From: a virus
Lineage: Duplodnaviria; Heunggongvirae; Uroviricota; Caudoviricetes
Virus record (IMG/VR): IMGVR_UViG_2529293141_000015
Coordinates: 1,630-65,629 of that record
Length of the DNA: 64,000 nt
Direction: 5' to 3' (one strand)
The position numbers are program-made. Shown here piece by piece: positions 53,101-64,000 of the stretch (positions are counted from its first letter, which is position 1; the number at the start of each line of letters is the position of its first letter).

Positions 53101-56100
53101 CTCTCGGTTCTGGTCAGAAGGCGGATGCGTTACAGAGTTTTAACTCTCTGGCAGACAGCAGTCTGGCAAAAGCTAAATCGGATGCACAGGCGGCGTTTAC
53201 GAAACAGCAGGGGCGAGCCTCTCTTGTTGGCGCTGGTCTGGGTGCGGCAGGTGCATATGCGATGCATAAGGCTGGCGGTAGCGGAGGAAGTGGCGGTGCT
53301 AAAACACCTGGCACTGGCGCTAATGCCATTCAGCATCAGGCTCAGAACTGGAGACTGTGATTATGGAGTACGGTAAATACGAAACACTTGCGAGATACGG
53401 TTATACCGGAGCAGCCCGCCCTCAGGGGGACTGGCAGACATCCGCAGCGCTGACCCGCCAGCAATACGACGACTGGCGCACCAGATATTTACCCCGTGTA
53501 GCAAGGCTGGCTGACCTTGGGGAGAACAACAGTCTGATGAATCCACAGCTTGCACGGGTGGGAGGCCTTGCCACTTCCAGTCTCCGTACAGCGCAGATGG
53601 CGCAGGATAACCAGATGGCGAGATACGGGGTAAGCCGCCCGGATAATCCCGACAGTAATACGCTGGGGTTACGTAATGCCCTGGCAATAGCAGGTGCGAA
53701 AAATGGTATCCGTGAAGCCGAACAGGATCGCCAGATGAATATTCTGACGGGGGCTTCTGCACCGGCAAGACAGAAACTGAGTGTTGGCGGACAACTGGTG
53801 GCAGCGTAAGGGGGCAATATGGGATACGGTTTACTGGATATTGCAAATCAGTCGCGGCGTGAGGCATTACAGGGAATAAGTGACGCAGACAGACGACGTA
53901 CAGAGATTGAGGCATCAAATAAACAACTGGCTGCTCAACAGAAAGCTCAGAAAAAACAGAATATCGGTACGGGCATTGGTACGGGGGCCACTATCGGGGC
54001 GACTGTTGGTTCAGCAGTACCGGTAGTGGGGACAGCCGTCGGCGCTGTTGCTGGTGCAGTAATTGGCGGCATTGCAGGCGCTTTGTTTTAAGGAGTGGTG
54101 AATGAGCGGATTTGCACAGGGGTTACTTGCCGGATTCAGCACTGTTGACCAGGCAATGACCCGTCGTAAGGAGCTTGGTTTGCGAGAAGCACAGCTTGCT
54201 CAGCAACAGAAAAATAACGAGCGCGATTTTGAATTTGCGCAGTCTCAGTTTGAACATAATAAAGACGTTGATCAGCGGAACTTTGATTACAGAGCCAAAG
54301 TTGATGACCGCAATTACACACTGCAGGAAAGGGAGTTTAACGCCAACCAGAATTACCGGAATGCGTCGCTGGGGATGGAACAGCAACGACTCCAGTTGCA
54401 GAAATACAACCAGCGACGGCTTGAGTATAACGATATGCTGGCGCGCGATCAGCCTGTGATGGCGGCGCTGGGAAAAGCGATTGATGCGGGTGACCATGAT
54501 GCGGCTTCTCATCTGTTCGGTAAATTATCGGACGCCAATCCGCTTAAGATGATGTCAACGGTAGGCTATGCTGCGAAAGCGGGTCAGGCCGTGAACAACC
54601 TGCAGAAAATCTTTGATGATAAGCCGGACAGGGCGATTGCTTCGCTGAATACCCCGGAAAATCTCGATGTGCTTTCCGGCGTGTTTGCCCCGGAACTACA
54701 ACAGCGTATTGGCATGCCTGATTCAACCGGGGAAAAAACGATAAAAGAGGCCAGGATTGGCAGTATCGTACCGGCGCAGCAGGAAGGGTACGTACTTATT
54801 GGCCTTGATCTCACATACAGCGATGGCTCCACCGCGCATAAACCTGTAACAGAATACGGCAGTGCGCACCCTGATGATCAAACCGTGCTGGCGATACCCG
54901 TTGATAAGGCTATCGCTCAGGTCAGGGATCGCAGCAAATTTGCAGAGATATCGAAAAATTATGGTTATTTTATGCCGAAGCAGCAGGGACTTTCTCTGAA
55001 AGAGCTTCAGAAGGGGGCCAGCAACGTAGCGGCGGACGCGATCAAGAATGGCGGTAATGCTCAGGCTGCGGTGGATGAATATTATGCTGCGACTGGTTCA
55101 CAACCGCATCAACAGAAAATTCAGCAACAAAAACTTCAGCAACAGGTTATCAACTGGGCGGGAGATGATCCTGATAAGCTGTCATTTGCCAGAAATGTAG
55201 CGGCCCGTCAGCCTGAAATGCTGGAACCTCAGAATCAGAAATTGCTGGAGAACGGGTATGCGAATTTTCTCCGTATTCAAAAGGCCAGGGGGGAACAGGC
55301 CAGAGATGAAAGTGCTTCATCTGCATCTCAGTTTATCCGTGGACTGAAACAGAATTACGCCCAGTAATTCACGATATTCCATTAATACCATTTCCTGATG
55401 CCCGGCCATTGTGCCGGGTTTTTTTATGGAGTCTGTATGGCCTATTCAGAGGAACAGCGTCCTGAGGCGCAACTCGGTAACCAGAATCGTAACAGCCTGA
55501 ACATTCAGCAACCCGGCGAAACTGACAGCTATGAAGCATTTTTCTCAGATCCGAATCGCTGGAAGGATAACAGTACGTCGTTCAGCCTGGGCGATGTATT
55601 GCCAACAATGGGTAAAGGTTTCGCCCAGTCCGTCCGGGGAACAGGGGAAATGGCCCGTGGACTCGGTGATGCGATGATTCAGAGCCCGGTAAAAACAGGG
55701 GCGCGTATTTTAAATGAGTTCAGCCGTATGGGGCTGCCGGGTGTCGCAACTGTGCAGGATATTTTTGCCGGTGGCAGCAGGGGGGCTGATGAGGTCATCG
55801 ATACCCTGCCTGATGGCAAAAACGCGGTTACTGATACTGTCGGTAAAGGTCTGAAGGCAACCGGTAAGGCTGTCAGTGATGGTGCTGAAGCCACTGATGA
55901 ATGGCTGACCGGTAAGATGTCGCCGGGTGCAGTTCGTGCGCTGAATACGCCGATGACCGAAGGCTATGATGATTCTGCGGTCTGGGTGGCGAAGGGTGTA
56001 AACCTGATTGGTGCGCTTGTACCTGATATGGTTGTTGGCGGTGTGGCTAAAAAGGTGGGTGATGTCACACTGCGAAAAATGCTGACCGCCGGGCTGGAGA

Positions 56101-62100: not shown

Positions 62101-64000
62101 TCCTGGCAACGGTGAACACGTCGTATAACCCGGAATTCCTGGTCAGTAACTTCATCCGTGACGTGCAGACAGCGGTGATGAATCTGAAGGCGGAGCAGGG
62201 AAGGAGCGACGGCAAACTGAAAGGGCTGGATAACTTATCCGCACTGGCTGTGGTGAAAGACAGCCGTTCTGCTATGTCAGCCGTATACGCCAGTCTGCGT
62301 GGCAAAAACCTCACGGGCAAAGGTGCGCAGTGGCAGAAGGTGTGGAAAGAGTTTGTTGAGGACGGAGGTAAAACCGGCTGGTTTAACATGGGTGACCTTG
62401 AAGGCCAGCAGAAGGAAATGGATCGCCTTGTATCGCTGGCGAAGGGAGGATGGAAAGGCCAGAGTATCGGTGCATGGAATTCGTTCCTGAACCTGGTCGA
62501 GGATGCCAACGGTGCGGTTGAAAACGCACTGCGTCTGTCAGCTTATAAACACGCCCGTGATGCCGGTTTGTCACGCCAGCAGGCGGCGTCTCTTGCCAAA
62601 AACATGACGGTGAACTTTAACCGTCGTGGTGAGCAGGGAGCGCTGATGAACTCGCTGTACATGTTCGCCAACGCCAGCATTCAGGGGACCGCAAACCTGG
62701 TGAGAACGCTCGGACATCTTAATGGCGACGGGCCGTTACTGGAGCGCCTTCGCTGGAAGAATCTCAATGTACCGCAGAAAATCGCGCTTGCAGCTGTGGG
62801 AGCGGGTTATCTGCTTGGCTCGCTTAACCGCAGTGTTGCGGGGGAGGATGATGACGGGGTTAACTGGTATGACAAGGTGCCGTCTCATGTGAAAGAGCGT
62901 AACCTCGTCATTATGAAATCGGTGTTCGGGGGCAAGGCCGGAGAGTACTGGAGTATTCCTCTGCCTTACGGGTACAACGTTTTCTTCCTGCTCGGGCATA
63001 CCGCTGAAGGTGTGGCGGCGGGTGACCTGACGGCGTCCCGTGCTGCCGGTAATGTTGTTGGTGGTGTGCTTGGTGCATTCAGCCCGATTGGCAGTGAGAC
63101 GTCGGAAACACTGTCCGGGGCATTGCTGAAAAATGCAGCGCCGACCATTCTGCGTCCGTTTGCGAACCTTGCCATGAATGAAAACTTCATGGGGGCGCAG
63201 ATTTACCAGGAGAACATGCCGTTTGGTACACCAAAACCTGACAGCCAGCTGGGAAGACGTTCAACGCCAGAAGCGTACAAGGCGTTTGCATCCTGGCTGA
63301 ATGCGTTCTCAGGTGGCAGCCAGTACCGTTCAGGCGCGGTGGATATCACACCGGAATCGCTGAAATACTGGGTGGACTATATCTCTGGTGGTACAGGGCG
63401 CTTCATTTCCAAAACCACGGATGCGGCGGTGAAATCGCTGAACGGTATTGATATACCGGAACAGCAGGTGCCTTTCCTGGGGAAAATTTCAGGTGAGGTG
63501 ATGCCGTATGTTGACCAGCAGAAGATGTACGACCGGATGACAGAGGTTGCGCAGTATCACGCAGAGCTGAAGAGTCTGACCGGCGCAGAAAGAACGGCGT
63601 TCATTGACGAGAACAACGGAAAATTGTCGATGAACGGGCTTATGCAGGATACCCGGAAGAGACTGAAGGATTTGCGTAAACAGCGTGATGCCATTTACGC
63701 CGACAGTACTCTCAGTCTGGCGCAACAGTCGGCGATGGTGAAATCGGTAGAGCGGGATATGAAAATTGCCGTGGATCGGTTTAACCGCGAGTACAACAAA
63801 AAAGTGGGAGTGGATTAACAGAAATGGCCCCGTACGGAAGTGCGGGGCTAATGTGATTGGGGAGGGTGAGGATACCTGACACATCAGAGGTGGCGAGGGA
63901 TTCCTCCCTTGCAGAGGTCTTTCTTCGTTATCAGTGCCGTCACAATGACGGTAATACAGAGATGAGCAGGGTGATTAACATCGCCTTTTGCTGCTTTCAT

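Follow-up and report, generated by a model that had tools for sequence, protein, structure and literature searches.

The window (the whole stretch of 64 000 nucleotides that was analysed) carries a gene for a protein of 2793 amino acids, which is probably a giant internal ('polyvalent') virion protein of the Sepvirinae-type short-tailed lambdoid phages, acting by the mechanism proposed below. The protein, its virion location and both of its protease clades have already been published, and it represents no new kind of system; two zincin active sites and a predicted RNase have now been placed precisely within it. Short-tailed Stx phages are vehicles for the spread of Shiga toxin genes in E. coli; the gene described here occupies about 13% of their genome, and its product is essential. 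Virion presence, copy number and essentiality were demonstrated by others for orthologues.

The giant gene and its upstream cassette

The first-pass annotation had proposed an uninterrupted frame of ~2793 codons behind a terminator and a GGAG ribosome-binding site, and this was found at 55437-63818 (+). The ORF listing of the window gave a single open frame, 55398..63818(+), of 2806 aa; its first in-frame ATG (55398) falls within a terminator-like hairpin (55400-55419), and a start at ATG 55437 yields 2793 aa, which is the published length of Sp5 ORF80 (PMC5155283). A stop-free run of 2793 codons has a probability of ~10^-62 at the composition of the window. The phi24B peptides listed, in a sheet pooled over slices, include no N-terminal peptide of gp47, and the proteomics are thus silent on the start codon. 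The features of the region are as follows.

52232..52609 (+): 125-aa ORF, first cassette gene (phrog_610; collinear homologue VPHD62_0015, phmmer E=2e-6)
52661..52680 (+): terminator-like hairpin and T-run before the four coupled genes (consensus scan only)
52704..53360 (+): 218-aa internal virion protein (phrog_611; weak match to phrog_8003 'virion structural protein'; Vibrio D62 0016, E=2e-16)
53357..53809 (+): 150-aa internal virion protein, phi24B gp50 equivalent (phrog_596; Vibrio D62 0017, E=4e-7)
53819..54091 (+): 90-aa glycine-zipper membrane-type protein, GTGIGTGATIGATVGSAVPVVGTAVGAVAGAVIGGIAGALF (Vibrio D62 0018, E=8e-9)
54102..55367 (+): 421-aa internal virion protein, Sp5 ORF79/ECs1241, phi24B gp48 (phrog_601; Vibrio D62 0020, E=2e-12)
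55400..55419 (+): terminator-like hairpin and T7 directly upstream of the giant ORF (GCCCGG-CCATTG-TGCCGGGT + T7)
55428..55431 (+): GGAG ribosome-binding site, 5-nt spacer to ATG 55437 (read from sequence)
55437..63818 (+): giant ORF, 2793 aa and stop (Sp5 ORF80/ECs1242; phi24B gp47; RefSeq 'LPD5 domain-containing protein')

The giant gene shares 97-98.5% nucleotide identity with the giant gene of Sepvirinae (ORF80 of Sp5, also called VT2-Sakai, and phi24B gp47); these orthologues are equally long and likewise close the late operon behind the same small genes, and phrog_616 matched the protein over its full length. It is the last gene of the structural operon, behind genes for the portal, capsid, tail fibre and internal proteins. 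The window appears to be stx-less, with only ~750 bp separating Q from a NanS-p-like esterase.

Four coupled genes had been described upstream. These four (52704-53360, 53357-53809, 53819-54091 and 54102-55367) are indeed tightly spaced, each with its own ribosome-binding site, and the second overlaps the first by 4 nt; the count of four did not stand, as the 125-aa gene (52232-52609) also belongs to the cassette, from the rest of which it is separated by the terminator-like site at 52661-52680. The five genes and the giant gene form a conserved six-gene cassette, which is collinear in the distant Vibrio phage D62. The 218-aa gene is by position the equivalent of phi24B gp51 and, from gene order only, probably Sp5 ORF76. 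The 90-aa product has the glycine-zipper segment that had been claimed, an obvious hydrophobic tail (Pfam Gly-zipper_Omp, E=0.002, below cut-off), with a weak Pfam Bacteriocin_IIc match and PHROG matches to stretches within tape-measure and tail-lysin proteins. Related records annotate this protein as 'bacteriocin'. None of the PHROG families matched by the giant protein and its upstream neighbours carries an ejection-protein annotation.

In phi24B the orthologues of the giant, 421-, 150- and 218-aa proteins are present in the virion and have no cryo-EM density, with about 19 copies per virion of gp47 (roughly 10-35), about 30 of gp48 (92% peptide coverage), about 36-40 of gp50 and about 22 of gp51; the counterpart of the 90-aa protein gave only 6 spectral counts and was called a contaminant (phi24B preprint). 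Sp5 ORF80 is essential and its mutants form DNA-filled, non-infectious heads; ORF79 is also essential, yet DNA packaging is intact in its absence (PMC5155283). The proposal of an internal-virion or ejection module is supported by these virion proteins lacking density, by the Sp5 deletions and by the Vibrio collinearity; ejection itself is likely. The internal head proteins of P22 (gp7, gp16, gp20) and T7 (gp14, gp15, gp16) are comparable in that mutants are DNA-filled and non-infectious and small membrane-active partners occur alongside; those ejection sets comprise three mid-sized proteins, whereas here one polypeptide carries enzyme domains.

Domain architecture and the two zincin modules

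The giant protein was divided into the following parts.

55734..56756 (+): N-terminal conserved module, aa ~100-440 (phrog_37568; hydropathy; homology to the Vibrio D62 giant)
56757..58136 (+): low-complexity acidic/Pro/Gln-rich linker, aa 441-900, ~460 aa (composition)
58137..59003 (+): conserved N-terminal extension and Pfam LPD5, aa 901-1189, LPD5 itself being aa 1051-1200 (PF18799, E=6.5e-45)
59004..59756 (+): predicted gluzincin-type zincin module 1, aa 1190-1440, CLCA_X / phage-type MPTase (Pfam LPD1 lies within it at aa 1361-1440)
59286..59300 (+): HExxH-1, HEWFH, aa 1284-1288 (motif scan)
59910..60500 (+): predicted zincin module 2, aa 1492-1688, HExx(x)H minimal zincin (no Pfam model)
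60087..60104 (+): HExxH-2, HEIIHH, aa 1551-1556 (motif scan)
60684..60947 (+): MuF-C domain, aa 1750-1837 (Pfam PF18819, scoring 63 bits, cut-off 27.6)
61098..63809 (+): C-terminal conserved module, aa 1888-2791, ~900 aa (contains Pfam LPD38)
62862-63479 (+): LPD38, aa 2476-2681 (Pfam PF18857, E=1.8e-48)

The domain scan found LPD5, LPD1, MuF-C and LPD38, whereas Pfam searches of the whole protein and of its gap segments (E<=10) left both HExxH cores without a significant match. Both of the HExxH motifs noticed at first reading are present, HEWFH at aa 1284-1288 and HEIIH(H) at aa 1551-1556; the composition of the protein predicts 0.03 such motifs, and two or more had a probability of 4.5e-4 in 20,000 shuffles. 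The published descriptions of Sp5 and phi24B do not place these motifs. A tryptic peptide from the HExxH-1 region, GNGPGALAHEWFHSLDNYFGR, and a peptide from the HExxH-2 region, (LR)HEIIHHAMEHVVTPAEYQTIIK, have been detected in phi24B virions (phi24B preprint).

HExxH-1 was kept in 139 of 139 distant representatives and lies on model helix 243-260 (pLDDT about 90). D1291 is also invariant, as are E1375 and E1382, located downstream on model helix 334-352, and these three residues are candidates for the third ligand of the metal. The LPD1 model contains this Glu helix, and the LPD5 and LPD1 models flank the catalytic helix. The predicted (AF2) structure of module 1 is a zincin-type fold, nearest to MtfA, anthrax lethal factor and PPEP; sequence identity to MtfA (M90), lethal factor/PPEP (M34), minigluzincins and Spartan/Wss1 is 9-19%. 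Module 1 aligned with positions 3-245 of the 250 in the CLCA_X model NF041907 (E=2e-44), its 151.8 bits falling under a curated cut-off of 260 that is tuned to stand-alone proteins of ~250 aa, and it has the CLCA_X signature of HExxH followed by a conserved Asp (HEWFHSLD, with D1291 invariant). Sequence comparison therefore indicates that it is homologous to CLCA_X but outside its stand-alone subfamily. The CLCA_X family is rich in phage, prophage and plasmid proteins, many of >1000 aa (Lenart et al. 2013; PMC3650047); in contrast to its stand-alone members, the domain here sits inside a giant protein, joined to LPD5.

In module 2 the residues H1551, E1552, H1555 and the downstream E1607 are invariant; of 95 representatives, 45 place the second His at +4 and most of the remaining 50 at +5. 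No Pfam family matched the module 2 segment of the window, and one of 33 members matched Peptidase_M76 (E=0.0012). Its predicted structure is again a zincin-type fold, both modules being confidently predicted domains with HExxH metallopeptidases as their best PDB structural matches. At the sequence level neither module matched any PDB chain; searches with the protein and with a profile for each zincin module and for the C-terminal module found no true relative there, and matches to designed-repeat and syntaxin chains were dismissed as coiled-coil or compositional noise. Trimmed hhalign comparison of the two modules gave only a weak match with the HExxH helix at its centre (probability 79%), which is no evidence of a recent duplication.

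The suggestion that these are zincin-like sites has therefore held, on motifs conserved in distant homologues, an invariant downstream Glu helix and predicted metallopeptidase-like folds; the opposite outcome, a purely structural protein with non-conserved motifs, was not seen. On sequence and models both motifs are real zincin signatures, with zinc binding and peptidase activity predicted. Their precise placement offers E1285 and E1552 as single-residue targets by which a structural role could be separated from an enzymatic one. It also corrects the published labels of the Sp5 and phi24B proteins, which differ, one being 'MuF-C metallopeptidase' and the other 'AAA+ ATPase'; neither is supported here, and MuF-C has been identified as PBECR, a predicted RNase (PMC5512222).

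The suggestion of an AAA+ ATPase powering a tail-assembly step derives from a COG1483 match reported for Sp5 ORF80 (PMC5155283). The motif scan found no Walker A (GxxxxGK[ST]) in the giant protein, so that the earlier statement of no obvious nucleotide-binding motif holds; there was no AAA or P-loop Pfam match even at E<=10 on segments and no NCBIfam ATPase match, and almost no weight can be given to this suggestion. The phi24B preprint proposes that the metallopeptidase digests peptidoglycan so that a conduit of ejection proteins reaches the inner membrane. Related giants do carry cell-wall enzymes, such as the N-terminal SLT domain of BcepMigl gp16, and in Bacillus phage Palmer a peptidoglycan hydrolase gene adjoins the giant gene. 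No lysozyme, SLT, amidase or M23/M15 domain was found in the window's protein, and this role is improbable. More generally, Pfam and NCBIfam detected no ATPase, methylase, helicase or peptidoglycan-hydrolase domain, and the AAA+ ATPase, DarB methylase/helicase, RNA polymerase and peptidoglycan-hydrolase readings were rejected for want of their defining domains.

Conserved terminal modules and related giant proteins

Within the N-terminal module, aa 182-200 are hydrophobic and aa ~406-433 form a Gly/Ala-rich, zipper-like stretch, with weak Gly-zipper Pfam matches; aa 161-408 align at 30% identity with aa 126-372 of the Vibrio D62 giant, and the module is common to about 13% of representatives. 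The linker that follows (polar fraction 0.55-0.67, hydrophobic fraction 0.15-0.23) is almost unconserved in representatives and is probably disordered. From aa ~900 onwards the sequence is conserved in 131-138 of 143 representatives, and the LPD5 region, modelled as aa 1040-1189, is mixed beta/alpha with high pLDDT.

The C-terminal module, which has moderately hydrophobic helices at aa ~2443-2467 and 2515-2533, was found by tblastn in 355 phage records. Homologous ~900-aa LPD38 modules occur in Bcep22 gp75, JC1 gp69 and BcepMigl gp16 (Lessievirus, 'DarB-like') and in the giants of Ralstonia GP4-like, Vibrio and Bacillus Page-like phages and Methanosarcina virus MetMV, with 21-42% identity across these groups and 27-42% for the C-terminal ends of BcepMigl gp16 and of the MetMV and Vibrio D62 giants. 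The LPD38 module recurs in giant virion proteins from viruses of Vibrio, Ralstonia, Burkholderia, Bacillus and archaea; a four-way alignment had 109 invariant residues, and the module was always C-terminal in relatives, ending a median of 6 residues from the end in 37 representatives. These giants are encoded, as here, by the last gene of the virion module after virion-associated proteins, the JC1 giant has been detected in virions, and the phages concerned have portal and capsid homology to 933W. Their payloads differ: BcepMigl gp16 carries SLT, an Eco57I-type methylase, a helicase and PBECR1 and lacks the CLCA_X zincin, whereas the Vibrio D62 and MetMV giants have zincin 2 and lack zincin 1, so zincin 2 accompanies the C-terminal module even in phages without zincin 1. 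Constant terminal modules with swappable payloads fit a single podovirus delivery vehicle for varied early effectors.

Giants of Burkholderia and Serratia phages are annotated as DarB-like antirestriction proteins, which would modify or shield incoming DNA. The phrog_10089 family of that name matched aa 2351-2681, and BcepMigl gp16, so annotated, shares the C-terminal module; the overlap, however, is the LPD38 module only. The methylase and helicase of such relatives, on which the label is based in BcepMigl, were absent by Pfam and NCBIfam, there was no Walker A, and PADLOC gave zero matches, which makes a DarB-like function very improbable.

The giant protein could instead serve structure or assembly, as an internal core, a plug or a scaffold like a tape measure that runs from the head through the portal and is needed for building or attaching the short tail, its enzymatic motifs being irrelevant to the main task. 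Sp5 heads deleted for ORF80 or ORF79 contain DNA and bind no tail-fibre antibody (data not shown in PMC5155283), the tail tilt of phi24B differs between full and emptied particles and was attributed to 'internal tail contents', and the C-terminal module is strongly conserved, with its 109 invariant residues. However, full conservation of catalytic-type residues in two zincins over thousands of clusters is unexpected for a mere scaffold, homologous C-terminal modules bear interchangeable enzymatic payloads, and no density was assigned to gp47 in the phi24B tail or portal. A purely structural role is unlikely. A scaffold would be compatible with the preferred explanation, and the two are not exclusive.

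The 3500-aa virion RNA polymerase of N4 (gp50) is likewise a giant protein within a T=9 podovirus head that is injected with the DNA, and its terminal domains offer a functional parallel for parts played in packaging and ejection; its C-terminal region, which is needed for encapsidation, contains a zincin MPTase (PMC5512222). It has an RNA polymerase module, whereas the giant protein has no Pfam RNA polymerase match and is not a member of that family. The N4 HELVH was a marginal profile match (domain E 0.043), the C-terminal module had no match in gp50, and BLAST to the N4 polymerase gave nothing significant.

The closest published description is that of the polyvalent proteins of phages and conjugative elements (Iyer, Burroughs, Anand, de Souza and Aravind 2017; PMC5512222), from which the Pfam LPD5 and LPD1 models derive, in which zincin MPTases are a hub domain, often in more than one copy, and which already include both MPTase variants of the giant protein. 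As in those proteins, several unrelated effector-type domains lie on one giant polypeptide encoded among late and virion genes. The two predicted zincins occur together with MuF-C/PBECR, LPD5, LPD1 and LPD38, all of them shared with polyvalent proteins. The giant protein is a member of this class and nothing essential differs.

Proposed mechanism

In the preferred explanation, the giant protein would be made late, packed into the T=9 capsid together with the proteins encoded by the small genes before it, and required for infectious particles. At infection it would most likely exit the capsid via the tail, ahead of or with the DNA, and the N- and C-terminal conserved modules may serve in head incorporation, exit or membrane passage. 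The minimal zincin 2 may cut the polyprotein itself and so free its parts, and the lethal-factor/MtfA-like zincin 1 and the PBECR RNase may then act early in infection as effectors on host protein and RNA. This analysis established the structure of the gene, the architecture of its domains, their conservation and their predicted folds; ejection, zinc-dependent proteolysis, self-processing and host targets are inferred. An anti-defence cargo is only an expectation at the family level, by analogy with polyvalent proteins (PMC5512222).

A more specific version is tentative and rather doubtful: the CLCA_X-type zincin might be an injected protease acting on a specific host protein and, separately, the C-terminal module might be a device for head exit or translocation, or an enzyme. 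The target might, with no greater confidence, be a defence or regulatory factor attacked in the first minutes, after zincin 2 has freed the protease. If this were true, Stx-type phages would need a protease delivered by the virion in order to infect or lysogenically convert E. coli, and the C-terminal module, which extends from enterobacterial phages to an archaeal virus and lacks a structural relative, would be a previously unrecognised device.

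A virion protein essential for infectivity

ORF listing of the window gave a single stop-free frame on the plus strand (55398..63818). The first in-frame ATG, at 55398, falls within a G+C-rich hairpin (55400-55419) followed by seven T residues; the ATG at 55437 has GGAG upstream with a 5 nt spacer and gives a product of 2793 aa, which is likewise the published length of the Sp5 orthologue (PMC5155283). The probability of 2793 codons without a stop is ∼10^-62 at the base composition of the window. The frame, hairpin and GGAG agree with the first-pass annotation, which had placed a ∼2793 aa ORF at 55437-63818 behind a terminator and a GGAG ribosome-binding site.

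The giant gene was matched over its full length by megablast in 186 phage records (90-98.5% identity), all of them short-tailed Stx-converting phages or close relatives (Ss-VASD, 75/02 Stx, VT2-Sakai, the PA series and others), and its RefSeq product name is 'LPD5 domain-containing protein'. It is Sp5 ORF80/ECs1242 and phi24B gp47. Deletion of ORF80 from Sp5 abolished plaques and lysogens, while heads looked normal and the packaged DNA was DNase-resistant; deletion of ORF79, the 421-aa gene, had the same phenotype (PMC5155283). An additional or alternative role in assembly is possible, as the tail-fibre signal was absent from the mutant heads, data that were not shown by the authors (PMC5155283).

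In purified phi24B virions, 422 peptides covered 93.6% of the gp47 sequence, and only the capsid protein had a higher spectral count. The copy number was estimated at 11-35 per virion (mean ∼19), and none of the density in the cryo-EM reconstruction was attributed to gp47 (bioRxiv 10.64898/2026.04.10.717836). Since gp47 is present in the virion yet has no assigned density, the authors term it an internal/ejection protein. The giant protein is a virion component that is essential for infectivity and dispensable for DNA packaging.

The spectral counts of gp47 dropped gradually from the top slice through all 24 gel slices (2188, 1686, 1187, 1260, 663, 447 and onwards). Some of the 308-kDa protein may be present in virions as fragments; with a sample stored for 6 months and peptide data that are pooled, processing and degradation are indistinguishable. 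This spread is compatible with self-processing but is not diagnostic of it.

Two zincin-type domains and their proposed roles

The giant protein carries two conserved zincin-type domains and a PBECR domain. Both HExxH motifs reported at first reading were located, HEWFH at aa 1284-1288 (nt 59286-59300; zincin 1, aa 1190-1440) and HEIIHH at aa 1551-1556 (nt 60087-60104; zincin 2, aa 1492-1688). From composition 0.03 HExxH motifs are expected in such a protein, and at least two were seen in 0.045% of shuffles. Tryptic peptides bearing each motif are present in the phi24B virion data set (bioRxiv 10.64898/2026.04.10.717836).

The domain-by-domain Pfam scan proposed earlier returned four matches, LPD5 (aa 1051-1200), LPD1 (aa 1361-1440), MuF_C (aa 1750-1837) and LPD38 (aa 2476-2681). 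Both HExxH cores lie outside all of these, and relaxed scans of the gap segments were empty. LPD5 and LPD1 flank, without covering, the HExxH helix of zincin 1 (window 59004-59756), and the invariant Glu helix of this domain sits in LPD1. As the Pfam models miss the HExxH helix, the automatic labels 'LPD5/LPD1 domain-containing' hide a metallopeptidase-like domain. The 'Muf-C metallopeptidase domain' of the preprint is a mislabel, the real peptidase-like domains being zincins 1 and 2. Elsewhere, aa 441-900 are of low complexity and lack conservation, and aa ∼100-440, conserved among a minority of relatives, contain hydrophobic and Gly-zipper-like stretches.

The predicted folds match protein-cleaving zincins, in keeping with the zincin-like sites first suggested, and peptidase activity is presumed. 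A peptidoglycan-degrading peptidase is unsupported, because of this resemblance and because a cell-wall domain is absent. The lack of an obvious nucleotide-binding motif noted earlier also held, a motif scan finding no Walker A motif in the giant protein; an AAA+ ATPase is unsupported because the P-loop is absent.

By analogy with the N4 vRNAP and the P22 and T7 ejection proteins, the giant protein would exit the head at infection, as the preprint also proposes. Zincin 2 may cut the polyprotein, while zincin 1 and the predicted RNase (MuF_C/PBECR) may act on host targets. CLCA is a self-cleaving protein. The idea of processing was discussed for MPTases by Iyer et al. (PMC5512222).

The gene, its essentiality, virion location and polyvalent nature and both zincin clades were already published (PMC5155283; bioRxiv 10.64898/2026.04.10.717836; PMC5512222; PMC3650047). 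Added here are the precise position of the two active sites in the giant protein, the assignment of Pfam LPD1 to zincin 1 and the lack of a Pfam model for zincin 2, the correction of two published annotations, and the vehicle-plus-cargo architecture and six-gene cassette described below.

Vehicle, cargo and the upstream cassette

The C-terminal ∼900 aa (C-terminal module, aa 1888-2791, nt 61098-63809) were matched by tblastn in 355 phage records, with relatives in Vibrio phages (42% identity), Ralstonia GP4-like phages, Burkholderia BcepMigl, Bacillus Page/Palmer and the archaeal Methanosarcina virus MetMV (29%). At all four loci examined (BcepMigl, Vibrio D62, MetMV and Palmer) the module forms the end of a giant protein that is encoded last or nearly last among the virion genes. 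A four-way alignment gave 109 invariant residues, many of them polar, and polar motifs are conserved across four very distant viruses (H1975-A-x-E1978-x-N1980, D1992-GGSG, Y2230-NP-x-F...N2238..RD2242 and DDD2471-2473). Such conservation suggests that the module acts as an enzyme or offers a precise interaction surface, and is more than a passive spacer. Sequence searches found no solved structure or family relative of the module.

Zincins 1 and 2 occur together in 106 of 143 giant representatives (median gap 43 aa) and the C-terminal module in 37, ending a median of 6 residues before the C-terminus; these representatives are biased to zincin 1 because they were picked by similarity to aa 1201-1750. 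Among giants found independently, zincin 2 lies immediately before the C-terminal module in Vibrio D62 (E=7e-51) and ∼470 aa ahead of it in MetMV (E=2e-22), and BcepMigl has an HExxH (LLHEAFHQ) ∼150 aa upstream of the module that is unscored by the zincin 2 profile. Zincin 1 was missing from all three in profile searches; BcepMigl has other domains, namely SLT, an Eco57I-type methylase, a helicase and PBECR1. This distribution points, at the level of sequence, to a constant vehicle of zincin 2 and the C-terminal module (partly also the N-terminal module), with an exchangeable middle as cargo. The BcepMigl relative is annotated 'DarB-like antirestriction', a reading unsupported for the giant protein because methylase and helicase are absent and only the LPD38 module is in common.

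The MetMV protein (5584-14592, 3002 aa, from an archaeal tailed virus) combines zincin 2 with the LPD38-containing C-terminal module, aligned over ∼870 aa, and the virion-protein vehicle thus crosses the bacteria/archaea divide.

The four genes upstream of the giant gene overlap or follow one another closely, and the 90-aa product has a hydrophobic glycine-zipper stretch at its end, in line with the coupled genes and the glycine-zipper membrane segment of the first-pass annotation. Homologues of all five upstream genes (125, 218, 150, 90 and 421 aa) lie in collinear order immediately before the giant gene of Vibrio phage D62 (E 2e-6 to 2e-16). A consensus scan placed terminator-like sites 5' of the 218-aa gene and of the giant gene. 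In a Q-antiterminated late operon such sites would be read through. In phi24B gp51, gp50 and gp48 are virion proteins at ∼20-40 copies, without structure-based stoichiometry, and the 90-aa Gly-zipper protein, with few peptides, was set aside as a contaminant (bioRxiv 10.64898/2026.04.10.717836). The virion location of gp51, gp50, gp48 and gp47, with the collinearity in D62, upholds the internal-virion module proposed earlier. In Sp5, ORF79 is essential and ORF76, from gene order probably the 218-aa gene, is required for efficient infection (PMC5155283). Virion association also holds for the giant protein of the related Burkholderia phage JC1 and for the two proteins encoded directly upstream of it.

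Other features of the window

Further features of the window are as follows.

23812-24345, putative Q antiterminator, judged from its sequence
25000-27018, NanS-p-like esterase (DUF1737, SASA and DUF6645)
40319-42115, plus strand, tail-fibre gene with six collagen (Gly-X-Y) repeat stretches matched and a phage-fibre C-terminus
43545-44678, plus strand, YadA-like trimeric autotransporter adhesin gene 2 (YadA_anchor E=4e-16)
50918-52120, plus strand, YadA-like trimeric autotransporter adhesin gene 1 (YadA_anchor E=1e-11, YadA_head)
63884-64000, minus strand, 38-codon ORF (MKAAKGDVNHPAHLCITVIVTALITKKDLCKGGIPRHL*), converging on the giant gene, with its start at the window edge

Only ∼750 bp separate the putative Q antiterminator from the NanS-p-like esterase, with no stxA-sized ORF in that gap, and ARAGORN found no tRNA genes in the whole window. 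Within the Stx-phage group, this phage appears to lack stx.

Both YadA-like genes are located inside the tail/late region and look like moron/lysogenic-conversion genes, possibly Eib-like. Gene 1 lies in a low-GC island (GC 0.438 at 50-52 kb; GC3 0.355 versus 0.51-0.55 in its neighbours). In Ss-VASD, Lom and other membrane proteins are encoded directly upstream of the conserved cassette. The Ss-VASD equivalent of the 38-codon ORF is annotated as Hok/Gef family; here the middle is Hok-like and the ends look frameshifted, and the ORF may be a remnant. The GC spike of 0.609 at 40-42 kb is due to the collagen repeats of the tail-fibre gene.
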